From a virus, in the IMG/VR virus record IMGVR_UViG_3300030329_003954, positions 27,107 to 91,106 of that record: a stretch of 64,000 bases of DNA; one strand, written 5' to 3'. Of this stretch, positions 16,198 through 57,868 are shown one piece after another. The translations under genes were made by a program, and so were the position numbers. A model generated the notes under the pieces. The model saw only the letters and a list, made by a program, of their open reading frames with translations. It did no database searches and was not told where the DNA came from. How positions within the stretch are numbered: the stretch's first letter is position 1; each line of letters begins with the position of its first letter.

Positions 16198-16534
16198 TAT
16201 CCAAAACTCGAAGCATTTGAGTTCTATTGTAACTTCAAATATTGAGAGTAAGCAAAACTCGTACTACCTTATCACCAACACATGGGATAAGGTTTGCAAT
16301 CATTTCAACGATAGGCTTCCGTCAGATGGCACTACGGATTTAAACGTTGTAGACATTTTTAATGTGCCTAATGCCCTGGACGTAATTAAGTCCGCGATTA
16401 AATCTCATAGAGAGACAATATCAACATCCTGTCTCTCGCGTTATGACCAACTACCCATGTTGGTTGTGATTCATAAGTCCTTCCCAAGAGTCGTATCTTA
16501 TAATGGCTCAGTTGGCGCAGAGATTGGAGTCTAG
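16163..16534 (+). CDS. Hypothetical protein, possibly degenerate thioredoxin fold
   Basis: TNTWDKVC in place of W-CxxC; LPMLVV. Confidence 0.4.
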   Translation: MSKQKNNFKTNSIQNSKHLSSIVTSNIESKQNSYYLITNTWDKVCNHFNDRLPSDGTTDLNVVDIFNVPNALDVIKSAIKSHRETISTSCLSRYDQLPMLVVIHKSFPRVVSYNGSVGAEIGV

Positions 16535-16884
16535 ATAGAGCTTGGATCCTTAGGAGTACCCATTTTATGGCTCCTATAGGATTCAAGTTTTTCGTTATAC
16601 TTCTTGTTCTTGGAGTATAGAAGGCGTAGGTTATTCAGTATTACTGTTGTGAAGTAATTGAAAGCCTGCCCAGATTCCCTGTTGAAGTTTTTGAGTACTT
16701 TAAGTATAAGTAGGAAGCATTCCTGTTTAGCTTCTTCATGATCAACATTAAACTTGAAAGACAACATGAGTCTATTGATTAATATGTCGAACATGTTGAA
16801 CAGTTCATCCTCGTTAGTTCGAATATCAAGTTTGAATTCTTGGATCAAATCCTCAAATCTTTTGTTGTCAATATAATAACTCAC
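16531..16884 (-). CDS. gp55: Late transcription sigma factor (gp55-like), short
   Basis: YIDNKRF, KNFN, AFNYFTTVI. Confidence 0.8.
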   Translation of the reverse strand: MSYYIDNKRFEDLIQEFKLDIRTNEDELFNMFDILINRLMLSFKFNVDHEEAKQECFLLILKVLKNFNRESGQAFNYFTTVILNNLRLLYSKNKKYNEKLESYRSHKMGTPKDPSSI

Positions 16885-16901: not shown

Positions 16902-17936
16902 ATGCCACAACTAAGTTTCCAGGGTGTCAACTCCAAGTGTGAGGGTTGCCCTGCGTTGAAGATGAATCTACCGACGCATACGATCTTGGACTATGAGTAC
17001 AAAAACACTCCAGTAGACATCCTCTTCATATCTGATTCAGCAAAGATGTTTGAAGGTGAGTTTACCGCCTTTCGACCGCAAGAGTACAGCATCATCCAGC
17101 GTGAGCTTGCCAGATTTTCAAAGGATTGGGATGTTGGCTATACAACCGCTGTAAAGTGTCCCAATATTACTTCTGAGAATCTCAGCACTGGTATAAAAAA
17201 ATCATGTAAGATTCACCTACATGATACAATCGATCACTACAAGCCTCGACTTGTCTTCGCTTGTGGAAAGGTCGCGACCACCCTTTTATATGGTAAAGCA
17301 AAGGAGGAGAGTAAGATTCGAGGCAAGGTTGATACCTTGGCAACGGAGACTGGGACAGAGTTCCAGGTTGTCCCAGTTATTCACCCGTTCCAAGTCGTGG
17401 CAGAGCCTAAGAACGCTTATCTTTTCAGGACCGACCTAGAGAATGCTCTAAATAACGAGCTATTAGGGAAGGCTACAGACGCTCAAGTGGACCATACTCT
17501 TGCTTTGAGCATAGGGGAATTGGACGAGGTAAGTGGTGATTTTATTGATACCAACATGGATCTTGCTGTGGATATTGAGACTACGGGTCTCAATTTTCTT
17601 GAGGATACAATTCACACAATCTCAATGACGCTTGTCAATCGCGATAGTGGTGAGCTTGGCAGAACCTTAGTATTACCCATTGATCATAAAGAAGCAAAGC
17701 TTGGTTATAAGGTGAAAGGTGCTTTTATGCGATTCATCTGTCAGGCTATGGCGAATAAAAATAACAGAAAGATATTGCAGAATGCGGGTTTCGACCTTAA
17801 GTTCTTGAAGAGGTATGGTGTCGAAGATGTGTATAATGTTTACGACACTAAACTCCTCCAACACCTATACAAAGAGGATGTTCCTAAGTCGCTTGCTGAT
17901 CTCGTGTACTACTACTTCCCAGAAGAAAAGTTCTAA
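16902..17936 (+). CDS. Split family A DNA polymerase part 1: UDG family 4-like domain plus 3'-5' exonuclease ExoI/ExoII
   Basis: CEGCP..AVKC..C and IHP (UDG-like); DIETTGL (ExoI); QNAGFDLKFL (ExoII); YDTKL. Confidence 0.85.
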   Translation: MPQLSFQGVNSKCEGCPALKMNLPTHTILDYEYKNTPVDILFISDSAKMFEGEFTAFRPQEYSIIQRELARFSKDWDVGYTTAVKCPNITSENLSTGIKKSCKIHLHDTIDHYKPRLVFACGKVATTLLYGKAKEESKIRGKVDTLATETGTEFQVVPVIHPFQVVAEPKNAYLFRTDLENALNNELLGKATDAQVDHTLALSIGELDEVSGDFIDTNMDLAVDIETTGLNFLEDTIHTISMTLVNRDSGELGRTLVLPIDHKEAKLGYKVKGAFMRFICQAMANKNNRKILQNAGFDLKFLKRYGVEDVYNVYDTKLLQHLYKEDVPKSLADLVYYYFPEEKF

Positions 17937-18460
17937 TGCTAACAGTTGAAGGTAAGAAGTTTGATTGGAAGAATATCCCATTGATTCAATGCGTTGAGGG
18001 TAATGCAAAGGATACCTATGCCACCGCAAAGGTGTATGTAAAACTACTCGAAGAGGTTCGTCAGAAGAAGTTAGAGCACCTATACGAGAAGTTAATCGCA
18101 CCTCTGACAGTTGCCTTTCGTGACATGGAGTTTGAAGGATTGCTTATCGATGAGGATAAGCTCAACGAGTTGGATCAGCAACTTCAAGACAAGCTCAAAC
18201 TGGCTGACATTGCTTTGCGAGACGCTGCTGGTTTGGAGGAGGACGCCAACCTTAATTCCACTAATCAGCTTGTGAAAATTATCTATTCATTTGAGAAGAA
18301 TGATGAAGGTGAATGGATTCAAGTTGACGACTTCGGTCTTGGACTGTATCCTTTCGAGTTTACTAAAAAGGGCGCACCTTCTACCAACGAAGAAACGTTG
18401 ACTAAGGTGAAAGCCATGGTTGAAGAAGAGTTCACAGCGAGAGGCTTGAAGGTTGAATAA
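17936..18460 (+). CDS. Split DNA polymerase part 2: ExoIII plus thumb
   Basis: NAKDTYAT (ExoIII), MEFEGLLID, NLNSTNQL, TKKGAPSTNEETL. Confidence 0.85.
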   Translation: MLTVEGKKFDWKNIPLIQCVEGNAKDTYATAKVYVKLLEEVRQKKLEHLYEKLIAPLTVAFRDMEFEGLLIDEDKLNELDQQLQDKLKLADIALRDAAGLEEDANLNSTNQLVKIIYSFEKNDEGEWIQVDDFGLGLYPFEFTKKGAPSTNEETLTKVKAMVEEEFTARGLKVE

Positions 18461-19517
18461 CGAAGAAGTAAGCATCGCCAAGGCAGTCCTGAACAACATG
18501 TCGAATGACCAGTTGAAGGCTGCTAAGAAGTTCTTTGATCGTTTCTCGGAGTATAAAAAGCTGACCAAGCTTCACTCTGTTTACATTGAAGGTGCTCGCA
18601 CCGCACTACAGAATACTGGTAACAGTAGAATGTATGTGAAGTATAACATCGATGGTACGGTTACAGGGCGAATCTCAAACTCTGGTGCCAACGTTGGTAG
18701 GAAGAAGACTGATAAAATTGGAGTGTCCTTCCACACTCTTCCTCGTGAGTCACTTGATGTAAATATTCGTGATTACGTGGTAGCCCCAGAGGGTCACGAC
18801 TTTATCACGATCGACATGAAAGCCATGGAGCTAAGAGTTCTCGCTCATGTTGCCAATGAGGAGAACATGATTCACGCCTTTAAATCTGGCGTGGACTTGC
18901 ACAGCTATTCTGCTGGATTGACGTTCAATAAGGACCCCAAAGATGTGAGTAAACTTGAACGACAGATCGCGAAAGAAGTGAGCTTCTTAACAGTGTATGG
19001 CGGAACTGCATACACTCTTGCTTCGAAGCGTAACATTCCAGAGGATCGCGCTGAGGAGATTATCAATAGTTGGCTAGCGGCTTTCCCAGGTGTAGGCCGA
19101 TACATGAACACTATCGACGAATACATTAAACAGTTTGGTTACGCTAAGACCATCTTCGGTCGTTATCGCCACCTCCCTAATGTCCGCTCACCATTCAAGG
19201 GCGTCCGTCGCGAGGCGTTCCGACAAGGTTTGAACTTTACAATTCAATCTGCCGCCAGCGATATCCTACTGTGCGGTATGCTTGGTGTGATTGAGAAGCT
19301 TAAGGGTATGAAGGCTAAAGTTGTAGCCACTGTTCACGACTCAATTGAACTCATAGCTCCTAAAGAAGAGACTAGGAGGGTCGTTGAAATTGTTAGCGAC
19401 GAGCTTGAAAACTACCACTATCTAAAAGACAACTTCAACATTCACTTGAAGGTACCGCTGGGTGTTGATGTTGAAGTTGGTTCTAGCTTTGGTAATGGTG
19501 TTGAGTATGAACTTTAA
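18453..19517 (+). CDS. Split DNA polymerase part 3: family A palm/fingers
   Basis: GTVTGRIS; motif A DMKAMELRVLAH; motif B RQIAKEVSFLTVYG; motif C VHDS. Confidence 0.92.
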   Translation: MNNEEVSIAKAVLNNMSNDQLKAAKKFFDRFSEYKKLTKLHSVYIEGARTALQNTGNSRMYVKYNIDGTVTGRISNSGANVGRKKTDKIGVSFHTLPRESLDVNIRDYVVAPEGHDFITIDMKAMELRVLAHVANEENMIHAFKSGVDLHSYSAGLTFNKDPKDVSKLERQIAKEVSFLTVYGGTAYTLASKRNIPEDRAEEIINSWLAAFPGVGRYMNTIDEYIKQFGYAKTIFGRYRHLPNVRSPFKGVRREAFRQGLNFTIQSAASDILLCGMLGVIEKLKGMKAKVVATVHDSIELIAPKEETRRVVEIVSDELENYHYLKDNFNIHLKVPLGVDVEVGSSFGNGVEYEL

Positions 19518-21007
19518 CGACCTAGGTAATCCATCACTCCTAGCCATTTAGGGGCAGTGCTCTTGTGTTGAGTTTGCCATTCTAAAAGACCGAAAGAGCC
19601 GTATCTCCCAAAGTCTCCTGTGAGCCTATACAGCATAAAGAGATCGGCTCCCTCACTAAACCACTCATCGAGATCGATGTAGTAAAGCTGCCGCATACCT
19701 GGATCTCTGTTGGCTGCTACAAATAAGTTTGTAAGCGTTTGATTGTTTTGTGCGGCACCTACACCTACAAGATGCTGACCCCCTTCGTAGGCAAGCAATC
19801 TCAAGCCTCTTTGGTTTGTGTCAATTTTATTTTGCCTAGTGAACACATGGTGATTATTGACTATGTTTGCCTGACAGAGGGTGAGAAGATAGGGTATCGA
19901 AAAGGTCGGAGCTAGCGGAACGTTGTTTAGATTCCCAAAACCACCGCCAAAGTAAGGGGCGACCGCAAATGCATCAGCACTTTCATATGCATTCTGCCAG
20001 TCCATGATCTGCCTATTAATCCAAGGGTTAACACTCTGACCTGCAAGCACTCGTACAAGTCTCCTGTCATTTAACTGATTATACATGTTAGAGAACAGGT
20101 TGAAAACTTCCACTGATCTTTGAGAATAAAATAACCAGCCAGCGTGCCAAGGCTGTGGATTAAGCCCCAAAGCCATGCCTTCATTTTGTGCGTAAGTATT
20201 TTGATCGAAGATTCCGTTCCATACTTCATTACTATATTCCAAATAAATTGTAAGTGATGGGTCTAGAGCGATTCGACATAATAAAGCAAGATACTGAACA
20301 TATAGGTCGTTTGCCATGTGAGGCACACAGATCCACATGTTCTTACATGTCTTGTTGCACAGATCAATCATGTACAACGGGTGGACACCTTCTGATGTAG
20401 CCTGCGTGTAATTATAAAAGTTGGTAGCATCATACCAATTGATCACAGGATTATCGTTGGTCCTACCCCAATTCATGAACCTAATCGTATCGAAAGGCTC
20501 CAAGCTCTTCATGAAATCAGGATGAAATATTCTTTGTGAGTTATCATATCCAGGTAAGTAGACTCTAATATTTTCAATGGGCTGGACGATGTCAGTAATT
20601 CTAAGTGTAAAATACCCATCGCTTGGGACCTGTAAATTAATTTTAATGTGGCCTTGAGTCTGTTGAACTATTGTAACAGAACCATTACCTCCTGCTAAGG
20701 GTTGGACAGTTCCGACACCGTCGTATCGAATATTGTAGATGCCGTCAGGGTAGTTGGGAGAACCATTGGAGAATATGATAGATTCAATCCACTGATTAGA
20801 CTGAAGACTCTGAGGCCATCCCAACTCATCTGTAATGACTGTTGGGCCTGTGCCCCATGAGAATGGACTTGCTTGGTGGCTTATCCATTCACGGGAGCTT
20901 TTAAAAGCGTCTACGAAGGGAGTCTGCTGGTGCCAGTCAGTGACTGTCTCTAAATTAATACCAACAGGGCCTTGTGGGGCGAGAGCGAGCAGCATTGAAA
21001 GTAGCAT
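19514..21007 (-). CDS. Secreted putative glycoside hydrolase / carbohydrate-active protein
   Basis: Signal peptide; IRFMNW, YLEYSNEVWN, AYEGGQH. Confidence 0.65.
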   Translation of the reverse strand: MLLSMLLALAPQGPVGINLETVTDWHQQTPFVDAFKSSREWISHQASPFSWGTGPTVITDELGWPQSLQSNQWIESIIFSNGSPNYPDGIYNIRYDGVGTVQPLAGGNGSVTIVQQTQGHIKINLQVPSDGYFTLRITDIVQPIENIRVYLPGYDNSQRIFHPDFMKSLEPFDTIRFMNWGRTNDNPVINWYDATNFYNYTQATSEGVHPLYMIDLCNKTCKNMWICVPHMANDLYVQYLALLCRIALDPSLTIYLEYSNEVWNGIFDQNTYAQNEGMALGLNPQPWHAGWLFYSQRSVEVFNLFSNMYNQLNDRRLVRVLAGQSVNPWINRQIMDWQNAYESADAFAVAPYFGGGFGNLNNVPLAPTFSIPYLLTLCQANIVNNHHVFTRQNKIDTNQRGLRLLAYEGGQHLVGVGAAQNNQTLTNLFVAANRDPGMRQLYYIDLDEWFSEGADLFMLYRLTGDFGRYGSFGLLEWQTQHKSTAPKWLGVMDYLGR

Positions 21008-21025: not shown

Positions 21026-21979
21026 CTACTTTCTTATTCTTCTACCTTGTTTGTCGAATTTGAGCACGCCCATATCCTTCATCAATTGAATGTTGGCTGC
21101 CCCGGTCTTTTTACCCATCGCTCTCTTCTTAGCAGCGATCTTAGACTCCTGACCTCTGACACCCATTTTGTTGACATTCTTTTTGGACATAGGCTTCTCA
21201 CTAGTGCCTTTCTTAAAGTTTTCTTTACCGCCCTTTACATCCTTTTTTACCGGGATTTGACGAGTCGGAGCACTTGGGCCTTCCGCACCTTTAGCAGGTT
21301 GAATTCTTTCTCTGCGGAACTTGCCACCGCTTCTTCCAATAGCGGCTCTGCGGCTAGGGTTCTTCTTCTTTGACACAGGCTTAGGATCTTTTTTAGCCTT
21401 TTCCTTCTTGTATGCCTCGGGATCACCTCCAGCCTGCTGAATTGAAGCAGGTGTGGTTTTCATTCGAGGATCGTTTTCTTCTTTAACACAGTTGGGGACC
21501 ATCTTTTTACCCTTCTTCTTTAATCCTTTCTGAGTCCAGCCGACCCAACACCTTTCAGCTAAATCTAATCTTGCATTTTTCACACGACGAAGCATTGCCT
21601 TGGGAACAACTTTAGGCTTTCCTTCGTTGAGTAACTTATTCACGATCATTTCACTCATTCTGTCTAAAGCGTCAGAGTTTATATCGGTTGAACAATTCCA
21701 TCTACGACGAGCCGCCTTACCACGCTCACCTGTCCATCCTCTACTTCTAGCACAGAATGACTTCCGACGTTTAGCCGCTTTGCTGCCGGGTTTCAGTTTG
21801 GAGGGAGGTGTGGTCACAGCAGTCTTCAGTTTAGAGCCTGGGTTTTGACGACGATACTTCTCAACACCTTTCTGTGTCAACCCAGCACCGCTTTTAGTAG
21901 ACCTCTTGTGCCCACCCTTCTGTGTCATACCAGACATATCACCTTTTTCTAGCAAAGCTTGCTTAAACTTTCCAACCAT
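21026..21979 (-). CDS. Basic modular protein, probable internal head protein
   Basis: GLTQKGV..YRR.NPGSKLK, RRKSFCAR, CW.G..KKKGKKMVPNCV; LLE/LNE sites; upstream TAAATA. Confidence 0.6.
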   Translation of the reverse strand: MVGKFKQALLEKGDMSGMTQKGGHKRSTKSGAGLTQKGVEKYRRQNPGSKLKTAVTTPPSKLKPGSKAAKRRKSFCARSRGWTGERGKAARRRWNCSTDINSDALDRMSEMIVNKLLNEGKPKVVPKAMLRRVKNARLDLAERCWVGWTQKGLKKKGKKMVPNCVKEENDPRMKTTPASIQQAGGDPEAYKKEKAKKDPKPVSKKKNPSRRAAIGRSGGKFRRERIQPAKGAEGPSAPTRQIPVKKDVKGGKENFKKGTSEKPMSKKNVNKMGVRGQESKIAAKKRAMGKKTGAANIQLMKDMGVLKFDKQGRRIRK

Positions 21980-22009
21980 GGCTATAATACTCCTATCCTA
22001 TTTACCCCT

Positions 22010-22786
22010 ATGATAGACTTTCTTCAAGATAAAAAGAGTTCCGTTTCTTTGGTTGATCGCATGATGGCTGACTCAGCCCTTAAAACTGTCAACGCAGCTA
22101 GATGTTCTTATGATAATGAGAAAGACCTATTTGATGATAGAGATAGGAAGCTTACAAATTTTCTGTGGAAACATGAGCACACATCTCCCTTCCGTCACAG
22201 CTACTATACATTTCAATTGAAGCTGCCAATTTTTGTGGCTAGGCAGTTAATGAAATATCAGGTTGGTTCGGGGTTTAGGTCAGTAGAGGCTGACGGAAGG
22301 GAGATATTTATTGAGGAGTTTGATCATTTGTATGATATTGACAAGGGCTGCTCCTGGAATGAAGTCAGCGGTAGATACACTAGGACATCGGATGATTATT
22401 ATCTCCCGACAGAGTTGAGATCTAATCCTCCTCATGGAAACAAGCAATCATCTGAGGAATATGAAAACCCCATGGATGAGAATACCATGGGTTATATGTA
22501 TCCAGGTGAGATTATTGAATATATGGATCAGCTATGCACTAATTCCCTACACATGTATAATCGAATGATTAAAAACGGTGTAGCTAAAGAGCAAGCAAGA
22601 GGCATCCTTCCCCAATGCATGTATACCAAGGCATACTGGACTCTCAGCCTGCAAAGTGTTATTTGGTTCTTGCATCAACGTCTAAAGCCAGACGCTCAGT
22701 ATGAGATTAGGATGCTGGCTGAAGGCATCTACGAATTGATGAGAGATGATCTTTGCAAACTAGGCATTACAAAGGAGAGTCTGTGA
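22010..22786 (+). CDS. thyX: Flavin-dependent thymidylate synthase
   Basis: AARCSY, H.SPF.H, PIFVARQ, WNEVSGRY, EQARGILP, AQYEIR. Confidence 0.92.
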   Translation: MIDFLQDKKSSVSLVDRMMADSALKTVNAARCSYDNEKDLFDDRDRKLTNFLWKHEHTSPFRHSYYTFQLKLPIFVARQLMKYQVGSGFRSVEADGREIFIEEFDHLYDIDKGCSWNEVSGRYTRTSDDYYLPTELRSNPPHGNKQSSEEYENPMDENTMGYMYPGEIIEYMDQLCTNSLHMYNRMIKNGVAKEQARGILPQCMYTKAYWTLSLQSVIWFLHQRLKPDAQYEIRMLAEGIYELMRDDLCKLGITKESL

Positions 22787-25411: not shown

Positions 25412-27305
25412 ACAATTGGATAGTATAGGTCAAGAAATTTTCATGTCTCGTTACGCTTACCCAGGCGAAACGAAATATTCAGAGAGATGTAAGGCGATGG
25501 CGAAGCACATCGCATCTGTTGAAGGTGATGAAGAAATTGAAAAGTATGAGAAGAAGTTCTACGACGCCCTCAGCACTGGTGATCTTGTACCTGGGGGTCG
25601 TATTATTTATGGTGCTGGCCGTAGTCAGCAAAATCTTCTCAATTGTTACGCTATTGAGCCTGACGACAGTGTAGAATCTATCGGTAAGACCATTCAAGAT
25701 ATGTATCGCATCTCCTGTGGGGGTGGTGGCATTGGTTTTAACTTCTCTAAGATTCGCCCGAAGGGCGATGACATTGGTAACGTGAAGAACTCTGCTCCTG
25801 GCTCTGTGTCGGTGATGCAAATGATTAACGAGGTAGGAAATCATGTTAAAGCAGGTAAAAACAGACGAACAGCACTTATGGCAGAACTTAATGTGGATCA
25901 CCCTGATCTACTGGACTTTTTGCATATTAAGCTGGATCTTTCTCAGTTAACAAACTTCAACATCTCAGTTGCGATTACTGATAAGTTTATTGAAGCATGT
26001 GAAAATGATGACACTTGGCAGTTTAAGTTTGGCAACCGGGATTACAAGGTGTACTCGGCAAACAGAATCTCCAGTGATGGACACAGTGAGGTTATCAACA
26101 TTGTCGCACTGTCTGAAGAGGATGCTCTTGGTCGTGCGAAGCAACACCATCTTCGTGGCTGGGATGACCAATTTGAGGATGTTCAGGAAGTTCAATTCAA
26201 GGCTATTGACCTGTGGAATCGACTGTGGAAGAATGCTGTGAAGTCTGGTGAGCCGGGTATCTTTAACCTGTCGCTGACAAATCGTTACACCAACATGTCC
26301 TACTTCCTTCGCATGAATGCCACTAACCCTTGTGGTGAGATTCCATTAGACTCTTACGCCAATTGCTGCTTGGGTCATATCAATCTGTCCAACATGGTGA
26401 ACGAGGATTCTAGCGATTTGGATTGGAATCGGCTTGCTAGGACTATTCGCACTGGCATTCGATTCCTCGACAATACTCTAACTGCAAATCACTACCCTAT
26501 TGAAGAGTGTAAGATTGCAGGTGATCGCTCCCGCCGTATTGGTTTGGGCACGATGGGTTTGCACCACATGCTTATCAAACTTGGCATCAAGTATGGCACG
26601 GACAAATGCATTGAGTTTATTGATCGACTCTATACCACGATTCGTAACGAGTCTTACCTTGCGTCGGTTTACATCGCCCGTGAGCGTGGCTCTTTCCCCG
26701 AGTTCAATGCTCGCAAATACCTGAACGAAGAGTTCGCTAAGACGCTTCCGGCTCGTATCAGGATGCTTATTAAGGAGCATGGCATTCGTAATGCTGTCAT
26801 GCTTACTGCCGCTCCCACGGGTACTGTCGGTATGATTCACGGTGCGTCTACGGGTATTGAACCCATCTTTGCCCCGATGTATGATCGCCGCTACCGTGAG
26901 GGTAATACTTGGAAGTCTCAGATGGTTCTCGATCCTCTGTTCAAAAAAGATCTAGAATCTGGTGGCAATGGTCGTCACATTGTAGGATCCTATGATATTA
27001 CTCCTGAGCAACACATGGCTGTTCAGGCATGTATTCAAAAGTATGTGGACAATGCAATCAGTAAGACTATCAATCTCCCTGAAGATGCTGATTACGAAGT
27101 TGTTTCCAAAATGGCTTTGAAGTATGCTCCTTATCTTAAGGGCATGACTGTCTATCGTGCGGGTTCGAAGGGCATGGAGCCACTCAAAGCCCTGCCACTT
27201 ACTGACGAAAATATTGCCAAGGCTAAGGAACTTATTGCAAGCGATCAAGCTGAATCAGAAATGGCTGTGGAAGCCTGCAAGATTGGTGGGGAGTGTGGAG
27301 CCTAA
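25401..27305 (+). CDS. nrdJ: Ribonucleotide reductase, probably class II (B12-dependent)
   Basis: PGGRI, NCY, NPCGEI, RRIGLG, APTGT, C-terminal CKIGGEC; no nrdB in window. Confidence 0.8.
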   Translation: MAIKQLDSIGQEIFMSRYAYPGETKYSERCKAMAKHIASVEGDEEIEKYEKKFYDALSTGDLVPGGRIIYGAGRSQQNLLNCYAIEPDDSVESIGKTIQDMYRISCGGGGIGFNFSKIRPKGDDIGNVKNSAPGSVSVMQMINEVGNHVKAGKNRRTALMAELNVDHPDLLDFLHIKLDLSQLTNFNISVAITDKFIEACENDDTWQFKFGNRDYKVYSANRISSDGHSEVINIVALSEEDALGRAKQHHLRGWDDQFEDVQEVQFKAIDLWNRLWKNAVKSGEPGIFNLSLTNRYTNMSYFLRMNATNPCGEIPLDSYANCCLGHINLSNMVNEDSSDLDWNRLARTIRTGIRFLDNTLTANHYPIEECKIAGDRSRRIGLGTMGLHHMLIKLGIKYGTDKCIEFIDRLYTTIRNESYLASVYIARERGSFPEFNARKYLNEEFAKTLPARIRMLIKEHGIRNAVMLTAAPTGTVGMIHGASTGIEPIFAPMYDRRYREGNTWKSQMVLDPLFKKDLESGGNGRHIVGSYDITPEQHMAVQACIQKYVDNAISKTINLPEDADYEVVSKMALKYAPYLKGMTVYRAGSKGMEPLKALPLTDENIAKAKELIASDQAESEMAVEACKIGGECGA

Positions 27306-51242: not shown

Positions 51243-51319
51243 GGGGTGATAGCTCAGTTGGTTAGAGCAGGGGTCTTATATACCTCAGGTCCCAGGTTCA
51301 AGTCCTGGTCACCCTACCA
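51243..51319 (+). tRNA. tRNA-Ile(UAU)
   Basis: Cloverleaf; GGGGT-CTTATAT-ACCTC; encoded CCA. Confidence 0.88.
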
Positions 51320-51320
51320 T

Positions 51321-51408
51321 GACAGTGTGGTGGAATTGGCATACACGACAGACTTAAAATCTGTTGACCATATCGGTCTTGCGGGTTCGAGTCCCGCCAC
51401 TGTTACCA
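51321..51408 (+). tRNA. tRNA-Leu(UAA)
   Basis: ACAGA-CTTAAAA-TCTGT; long variable arm; CCA. Confidence 0.93.
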
Positions 51409-51494
51409 TTAAGGAGGACTGTTGCGTGACTGCTGGATTTCCCTGGTCGTCAATCACAGGATACCTAAGCATGTATTCAAACTGCTTATTTTAT

Positions 51495-51570
51495 GCCTTC
51501 GTAGCTCAGTTGGTAGAGCAATCGGCTTTTAACCGATTGGTCCAAGGTTCGAGTCCTTGCGAGGGTACCA
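51495..51570 (+). tRNA. tRNA-Lys(UUU)
   Basis: ATCGG-CTTTTAA-CCGAT; CCA. Confidence 0.95.
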
Positions 51571-51591
51571 TACAATCAAGGAGTAAGTATT

Positions 51592-51792
51592 ATGAAGTTC
51601 ACACTATTAAGTGGAGTTAGAAAGTATGCTGAAGGCAACATTGCAAAGCATAGAGCAAATGTGCAAGCTTACCTCGATCACAGCGTAGCCATCGCAGAGC
51701 ACACTGACATCATTGAGTCGGTGGAAACTGAGTTGAAAAAGATTGCTGAGTATGAGGATATGCTAGACGTACTTGATAAATATTTCAGCTAA
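51592..51792 (+). CDS. Small T4-like phage hypothetical protein
   Basis: AAGGAG SD; G.I.KH.ANV..YL...V.I.EH.DI. Confidence 0.7.
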   Translation: MKFTLLSGVRKYAEGNIAKHRANVQAYLDHSVAIAEHTDIIESVETELKKIAEYEDMLDVLDKYFS

Positions 51793-51798
51793 CAACAA

Positions 51799-51874
51799 TC
51801 CTCAATAGCTCAGTTGGTAGAGCAGATGACTGTTAATCATCGGGTCGTAGGTTCGAGTCCTACTTGAGGAGCCA
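51799..51874 (+). tRNA. tRNA-Asn(GUU)
   Basis: GATGA-CTGTTAA-TCATC; GCCA end. Confidence 0.95.
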
Positions 51875-51877
51875 TTT

Positions 51878-51953
51878 GCCCGTCTAGCTCAACTGGCAGA
51901 GCAACGGTTTTGTAAACCGTAGGTTACAGGTTCAAGTCCTGTGATGGGCACCA
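51878..51953 (+). tRNA. tRNA-Thr(UGU)
   Basis: ACGGT-TTTGTAA-ACCGT; CCA. Confidence 0.95.
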
Positions 51954-56962: not shown

Positions 56963-57039
56963 TGGTACACCCTATAGGAATCGAACCTATAACCTACGGC
57001 TTAGAAGGCCGTTGCTCTATCCAATTGAGCTAAGGGTGC
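56963..57039 (-). tRNA. tRNA-Arg(UCU)
   Basis: ACGGC-CTTCTAA-GCCGT; CCA. Confidence 0.95.
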
Positions 57040-57784: not shown

Positions 57785-57868
57785 TGGTGGAGCCGGTGGG
57801 AATCGAACCCACGTCCAGGATTGGCCCACATTGAGGTTTTCCATCCTGTCGAAACCATAAACAGCCCC
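57785..57868 (-). ncRNA. Mini-tmRNA (tRNA-like domain only, 84 nt)
   Basis: GGGGCTG-TTTATGGTTTCGAC-AGGAT-(21 nt)-ATCCT-GGAC-GTGGG-TTCGATT-CCCAC-CGGCTCC-ACCA; G3:U70. Confidence 0.85.

Follow-up and report, generated by a model that had tools for sequence, protein, structure and literature searches.

In a 64,000-nucleotide stretch of viral DNA (positions 27,107 to 91,106 of IMG/VR record IMGVR_UViG_3300030329_003954; referred to here as the window), we found three adjacent open reading frames (ORFs) on the plus strand, g1, g2, and g3, which ORF calls and profile matches identify as consecutive segments of one family A DNA polymerase (PolA). The features of the locus are listed below in window coordinates. 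Alignment A4 comprises g1 in 32 relatives, and the g2 family profile was built from 79 sequences.

16902-17936, plus strand: g1, 344 residues, ATG start; a UDG-like domain (residues ~1-185) and the first two thirds of the 3'-5' exonuclease domain (residues ~200-344)
17571-17579, plus strand: ExoI, D224-I-E226 of g1, read off the sequence; both acidic residues invariant in alignment A4
17793-17795, plus strand: ExoII, D298 of g1 (NAGFD), read off the sequence; invariant in alignment A4
17934-17938, plus strand: junction 1, TAATG, a one-base overlap of the g1 stop with the g2 start
17936-18460, plus strand: g2, 174 residues, ATG start; the last exonuclease helices with ExoIII, the exonuclease-polymerase connector, and the first half of the thumb
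17999-18013, plus strand: ExoIII, G22-N-A-K-D26 of g2; G22 and D26 invariant in 79 sequences
18440-18444, plus strand: AGAGG, Shine-Dalgarno-like, within the 3' end of g2 and 8 nt ahead of the g3 start
18453-18460, plus strand: junction 2, an 8-nt overlap of the g3 TTG start with the g2 TAA stop
18453-19517, plus strand: g3, 354 residues, TTG start; the second half of the thumb, the palm, and the fingers

The three proteins matched phrog_17 collinearly (g1 at 546-785, E 2.5e-26; g2 at 796-920, E 1.7e-10; g3 at 929-1237, E 8.4e-71), and judged by these values three matches in this order are far beyond chance. The pieces are also collinear with one-piece relatives, such as P0100, a UDG-exonuclease-polymerase protein of 778 residues. 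Residues 220-339 of g1 matched the Pfam exonuclease model PF01612 at model positions 22-128 of 173 only; the last approximately 45 positions of the model are missing from g1, whereas the one-piece P0100 spans positions 2-172. In g3, PF00476 was matched at model positions 57-380 of 381 (E 4.7e-72). Strong promoter or terminator matches were not found inside the three-ORF locus, which fits a single operon whose genes would be translationally coupled.

An initial annotation of the window, made from its letters alone, had described a family A polymerase split into three genes, and most of what it read at the locus held. The ORFs lie exactly where it had placed them, with ordered profile matches, and both the TAATG junction and the 8-nt overlap with a TTG start (TTGAATAA at 18453-18460) were read in the raw sequence. 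ExoI and ExoII are in g1, as it had claimed, with D224, E226, and D298 invariant in the 32 relatives, and all of motifs A, B, and C were found in g3. The first break indeed falls within the exonuclease domain. Its placement of ExoIII in g2 was supported by alignment to Klenow, but the thumb that it had also assigned to g2 is only half there, since the second half opens g3. The UDG-like domain at the N-terminus of g1, which the initial annotation had left unmentioned, is added here.

We found that break 1 cuts the exonuclease fold between ExoII and ExoIII, approximately 25 residues before ExoIII. The four catalytic carboxylates of the exonuclease, all of them invariant across the clade, are thereby split 3:1, with D224, E226, and D298 in g1 and D26 in g2. 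The profile of the g2 family (79 proteins) aligned to Klenow 481-617 (E 5e-21), with GNAxD opposite Y497-A-A-E-D501. The profile of g3 aligned to Bst Pol I at chain positions 266-571 with E 6e-66 (range for Bst and Klenow, E 1e-56 to 6e-66); its alignment begins at approximately Klenow 626 (Bst 562), and that of g2 ends at approximately Klenow 617-630. These end points place break 2 inside the thumb. Invariant residues of g3 include T71-G72-R73, D121 of motif A, R170, K174, F178, and Y182 of motif B, and H295-D296 of motif C.

The UDG-like domain of g1 is of family 4 (PF03167 at 30.6 bits over a cut-off of 24.3, residues 69-180). Four cysteines of g1 (C13, C16, C86, and C102) are invariant in the 32 relatives and look like the ligands of a family-4 Fe-S cluster, and H161-P162 of the domain, from the catalytic motif HPS, is kept in relatives. 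Published UDG-PolAs have been linked to thymine-modified genomes (PMC13697223). The phage has, in addition, a glycosyltransferase cluster and a thymidylate-synthase-like gene (21959-22786).

We questioned whether the breaks are shared by relatives, and IMG/VR searches that used g3 or alignments as queries yielded related loci from approximately 60 datasets. Of the 79 IMG/VR loci in which all three parts are present, every one retains both breaks, so that close and distant relatives alike are split at the same two places; across these loci identity falls from 99% to 49% for g3 and down to approximately 31-42% for g1 and g2. Pairwise dN/dS was 0.014-0.037 for each piece, i.e., purifying selection. 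The initial annotation had singled out 17936 and 18453 as sites where indel errors might conceal a single ORF. Independent Logan contigs, taken from four further marine runs, span the two junctions with substitutions only and no indels, and no single ORF is restored. Furthermore, an exhaustive HMMER scan, with g2 as the query and 1.84 billion cluster representatives as the target, returned 182 matches; of the top 100, approximately 95 are stand-alone proteins (157-181 residues) that align end to end. Members of the g2 family, labelled 'DNA polymerase I-like' or nameless, are present in JGI, ENA, Logan, Tara, and NCBI metagenome data. The clade includes approximately 100 clusters at 50% identity, and 388 related stretches in IMG/VR. 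By these comparisons, the split is a real, old, and selected arrangement.

T4-like replisomes with gp41, gp32, and gp46/47 normally use the family B polymerase gp43. The window lies within an IMG/VR contig of 91 kb, for which the CheckV completeness is 77%. Its major capsid protein is gp23-like, with 28-33% identity to gp23 of KVP40 and of cyanomyoviruses, and PHROG matches identify a prohead protease, a tail sheath, gp46/47-like nuclease subunits, NrdA, thymidylate synthase, a DnaB-type helicase, an SSB, and a UvsX-like recombinase. The description of the virus as a T4-like phage is thus borne out for its capsid, tail, and recombination genes. We found no family B polymerase (PF00136) in the 91-kb contig, nor in the contigs of five relatives, which share the capsid protein at 52-69% identity. 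Four of these five relatives are 99-100% complete by CheckV (111-131 kb), which extends the absence of a family B polymerase to complete genomes, and each of the four contains exactly one PolA polymerase domain, together with a gp23-like capsid protein at 52-54% identity. That the split enzyme is the sole recognisable replicase of its clade argues strongly that it works. As to accessory factors, the only clamp-loader-like match was a generic AAA+ in a protease-like ORF, and a profile search for the gp45 clamp (PF02916), whose control was silent, says nothing on the clamp. Among cultured phages, the August 2025 collection held no close relative (no matches by blastn of the region or by tblastn of g2), and g1, g3, and the two-piece forms are at most approximately 31-33% identical to any cultured phage. 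The best matches to g1 were SPO1-group Bacillus phages, at 22-31% identity.

Relatives of the locus encode the polymerase in one, two, or three pieces. The one-piece state is the UDG-exonuclease-polymerase protein exemplified by P0100. In the two-piece state (P0034, P0108, P0113, and P0138), g1 is accompanied by a fused g2-g3 whose head reads MLTV...GNAxD, as in g2. The DNA of loci L144 and L145 confirmed this state, with the fused gene following a g1-like gene. At the P0034 locus, an ORF of 92 residues lies between these two genes. In a maximum-likelihood tree of the polymerase region, all split forms make up one clade (support 100/99), and three two-piece forms fall outside a 98/97 clade that holds all three-piece forms. 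The simplest history would be that break 1 came first and break 2 later, and the tree fits such a stepwise fission.

Our data suggest that a translationally coupled operon very probably makes an obligate heterotrimer that serves as the single family A replicative polymerase of these phages. The three ORFs are real cistrons, which would form one operon and encode one polymerase as three polypeptides. Termination of g1 at TAATG would lead to re-initiation on g2, and initiation of g3 at the TTG inside g2 would be assisted by AGAGG acting as a Shine-Dalgarno sequence; coupling of this kind should yield roughly equal amounts of the three proteins. These would then assemble non-covalently into one enzyme. 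To this enzyme g1 would contribute the UDG-like domain, the greater part of the exonuclease fold, and three of the four carboxylates. The remaining exonuclease helices, D26, the connector, and the first half of the thumb would come from g2, and what is left of the thumb, along with palm and fingers, from g3. The g2 protein would thus be an obligatory bridge that completes both neighboring folds, and the proofreading site would be composite, formed across a subunit interface. We propose that the arrangement arose by two successive fissions of a one-piece UDG-exonuclease-polymerase ancestor, both of which became fixed in a large clade of uncultured marine myoviruses. The heterotrimeric PolA from coupled genes put forward in the initial annotation therefore gains support from the conserved breaks, the independent starts (described below), and selection; its physical assembly is something we infer.

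Several observations weigh against this interpretation. All 79 stand-alone members of the g2 family have an invariant glycine in place of the ExoIII tyrosine (Klenow Y497). Canonical Y-x3-D is present at ExoIII in one-piece relatives, so that the change from tyrosine to glycine coincides with the split clade, and proofreading may be altered, weakened, or done differently. Approximately 27-30 extra residues surround break 2 (the g2 tail and the g3 head, window 18400-18530) when compared with Klenow, Bst, and two-piece relatives; they could be a docking element made up of the g2 C-terminus and the g3 N-terminus. In the UDG-like domain, the position of what we take to be the motif GE(A/G)PG, aligned by eye, reads S-D-S-A-K, and activity of the domain is uncertain. 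The AGAGG upstream of the g3 start also encodes R-G of the g2 tail, and a role as ribosome-binding site is inseparable from constraint on the protein. With regard to the proposed history, the polymerase-region tree is midpoint-rooted and of limited sampling, and the two-piece P0034 (L144:3001-4692) nests inside the three-piece clade. P0034 keeps a methionine (…KDKN-M-ADLVIQSL…) exactly at the position of the g3 start, which suggests a secondary re-fusion of g2 and g3. Lastly, assembly of the heterotrimer and its activity are deduced from comparison of sequences. A predicted complex of the three chains scored 0.91, against 0.73 for a control in which chain 3 was replaced, and this was counted neither way.

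We also considered that the fission might be put to use. Here g1 would act as an editing subunit, exchangeable and docked on a g2-g3 core, proofreading or base editing could be switched or dosed during infection, and the change from tyrosine to glycine and the residues at the thumb break would be adaptations of the interface. We regard this as a tentative and rather unlikely elaboration. If true, it would mean a family A replicase built like Pol III alpha/epsilon or PolD DP1/DP2.

A related alternative is that assembly is partial or regulated, with g2 and g3 forming a working polymerase and g1 either a dissociable or separate editing factor or, if the exonuclease is inactive, a structural part only. 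Break 1 is older and commoner than break 2, and the two-piece forms consist of g1 and a fused g2-g3. The lost ExoIII tyrosine points in the same direction, as do the genes inserted between g1 and g2 in some relatives, which loosen translational coupling, and PolAs have been reported to need the exonuclease fold for stability even if it is inactive (PMC10201439). However, the four invariant carboxylates argue for a live site to which g1 and g2 are both necessary, the exonuclease fold in g1 alone stops short of the end of the Pfam model that P0100 covers, and g1 is under selection as strong as that on g2 and g3. We therefore consider partial assembly improbable, although it fares best among the alternatives to an obligate heterotrimer.

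Recoding would make the separate ORFs only apparent: a -1 shift at junction 1 and a +1 shift at junction 2, or readthrough, would give a single chain of approximately 870 residues. This was the second inference of the initial annotation. In its favor, g1 and g3 have a common reading frame, with g2 displaced from it by one; no stop interrupts the g2 frame over the 36 nt ahead of its ATG; and an A-AAG string lies before the g1 stop. Yet a valid start codon is always there. Every junction in the 79 loci consists of a stop and an in-frame ATG, GTG, or TTG start, M1-L2 of g2 is invariant in 79 sequences, and nowhere among these loci do the exonuclease and polymerase domains share a single polypeptide, each junction having its own stop and start. 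In 63 of the 79 loci junction 1 reads TAATG, and the remainder show TGATG, TAGTG, TAAtATG, longer overlaps, or inserts; TAGTG in place of TAATG is a paired change of stop and start, and TAAtATG alters the frame relation. At junction 2, g3 begins with TTG, GTG, or ATG and either overlaps g2 by 4, 8, 11, 14, 17, 20 nt or more or follows it after a short spacer, and AGAGG upstream of the g3 start is kept in all junction sequences examined. Frame relations therefore vary among loci, as in the 4-nt and 8-nt overlaps at junction 2, and they also differ in L030 (TAAtATG), L032 and L034 (spaced starts), and others. Neither stop is preceded by a conserved slippery sequence, and the bases before the g1 stop vary freely. 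Readthrough of the g1 stop was examined as a separate candidate and rejected, as a second stop follows in the same frame two codons past the TAA.

Furthermore, unrelated genes lie between the pieces in 10 loci, some of them on the opposite strand. Inserts of 274-634 nt occur at junction 1 in nine loci, and an insert of 585 nt occurs at junction 2 in one locus. Examples, in coordinates of the respective locus, are as follows.

L102, 2853-3470: HNH_3 endonuclease at junction 1 (E 4.9e-10)
L118, 2961-3515, minus strand: membrane-protein-like ORF; opposite-strand membrane-like ORFs likewise in L126 and L131
L128, 3013-3441, minus strand: another opposite-strand ORF; likewise in L130
L139, 3217-3492: membrane-like ORF of 91 residues
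L141, 2274-2831 and 3360-3986: 2OG-Fe(II) oxygenase at junction 1 and DUF6445 protein at junction 2

Taken together, the exchange of start codons, the changing frames and overlaps, and the inserted genes argue for independent initiation and not for frameshifting. By the same evidence recoding is effectively excluded, and we assign it a very small probability. Both break points serve as insertion sites in relatives.

Post-translational joining, in which split inteins or their remnants would ligate or clasp the broken ends, has a precedent in marine metagenomes, where 'fractured genes' accompanied by split inteins and endonucleases have been described (PMC2677866), and the extra residues around break 2 might be read as a remnant. 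No Hint/intein or endonuclease domain was found in any of the three pieces in the window at E<=0.1 (Pfam). Junction 1 is without extra length (35 residues, compared with 31 in P0100, the one-piece form), the surplus at junction 2 is much too short to be an intein, and no Cys/Ser/Thr nucleophile pattern was seen by eye at the ends. Joining of this kind is thus exceedingly unlikely. An Rfam scan of the window found no intron, and no homing endonuclease gene lies between the pieces in the window. The earlier statement that the junctions hold no intron, intein, or homing endonuclease sequence consequently stands for the window, but it does not extend to relatives, whose junctions can hold inserted genes. 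The HNH gene of L102 suggests a possible origin of the break or an insertion hot spot, and it is not a feature of the present locus.

Finally, although the window derives from a metagenome-assembled and incomplete contig, there is hardly any chance that the breaks are sequencing or assembly indels, or that the genes are a pseudogene in a defective phage, given the identical breaks in 79 loci from many datasets, the indel-free contigs of other runs, the purifying selection on every piece, and the status of the enzyme as the only polymerase in four complete relatives.

The three genes are closely flanked on both sides. An ORF of 117 residues (16531-16884, minus strand) is divergent from g1 across a gap of only approximately 17 bp, and an ORF of 497 residues (19514-21007, minus strand) converges on g3, its 3' end overlapping the last 4 nt of g3 (the stop and one base); neither has a PHROG match. 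Elsewhere in the window there is an array of five tRNAs (51243-51950, plus strand) and one more tRNA (56966-57039, minus strand). A tmRNA match (RF00023, Rfam) at 57785-57868 on the minus strand scored 75.1 bits and is only 84 nt long while spanning model positions 1-374; it comprises the tRNA-like domain without the tag-coding region, i.e., a mini-tmRNA.

Family A polymerases are textbook single-chain enzymes. Splits of polymerases and other replication enzymes in phages have nevertheless been described, and the obligate heterotrimer proposed here can be compared with each of them. In the T7-like phages of the S-SBP1 type, PolA is divided into an exonuclease gene and a polymerase gene, which was reported as the first split of a PolA, with the parts predicted to reassemble and a frameshift explicitly dismissed (PMC10201439), and the split has been used to define cyanopodovirus clade B (PMC12695635). 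What the two systems have in common is fission into adjacent, overlapping, separately translated genes without intron or intein. The S-SBP1-like enzyme, however, is in two pieces, is cut at the exonuclease/polymerase boundary, and belongs to T7-like podoviruses (cluster #5), whereas here there are three pieces, the cuts lie inside folded units (within the exonuclease domain and at approximately Klenow 617-626), and the nearest relatives are UDG-PolAs. The lineage is one of T4-like myoviruses, with phenylalanine in place of tyrosine at motif B position 762. OM43 phages of the MEP401 type contain a PolA in two ORFs with a small unknown ORF between them, an arrangement conserved in related metagenomic genomes; in these podovirus-like phages of 43 kb a single break falls inside the polymerase domain, the exonuclease is unbroken, and an intron was considered possible (PMC10580990).

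Among T4-type phages, the split polymerase gp43A/43B (Aeromonas phages 25 and 44RR) and the NrdA of Aeh1 are likewise essential replication enzymes in pieces. The gp43A and gp43B proteins co-purify and are active, and Aeh1 NrdA, split by mobE, is functional; the review that covers them also treats T4 topoisomerase, and reassembly into an active enzyme has been shown for gp43A/B and NrdA (PMC2988022). In those cases homing endonuclease genes are associated with the break sites; here the relative L102 has an HNH gene at junction 1, and most members, the locus of the window among them, have no endonuclease. Moreover, the enzymes of the earlier cases, a polymerase of family B and a ribonucleotide reductase, are each in two pieces and come from a few cultured phages, whereas here a three-piece PolA is fixed throughout a large clade of uncultured phages.

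The domain order of the locus (UDG-like, exonuclease, PolA) is that of the UDG-PolA fusions of SPO1-, SP-15-, and N4-like phages (PMC10201439, PMC13697223); such fusions were described by Czernecki et al. 2023 (PMC10201439). Those fusions are single polypeptides, whereas here there are three proteins and motif A of the UDG is non-canonical. A published three-part PolA was not found in the literature searched, which left most subscription journals outside the search. The locus thus belongs to a known phenomenon of split genes; what is new is the number of pieces, the position of the cuts inside folds (one of them through a catalytic site), the UDG-PolA lineage, and the role as sole replicase of a large T4-like clade.

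Published natural splits of PolA have one cut, at or near a domain boundary, and the present enzyme has two, inside the proofreading fold and inside the thumb. Our model predicts that the catalytic site of the exonuclease is assembled across a protein interface. The two break points would offer naturally validated split points for the engineering of split or conditionally assembled polymerases, and the series of one-, two-, and three-piece forms could be used to study the fission of an essential gene and the colonisation of new intergenic sites by mobile genes. Surveys that use full-length polA as a marker will mis-score this clade. Our data document T4-type myoviruses that would replicate with a PolA in place of gp43, and these make up a large, globally distributed clade of marine phages.

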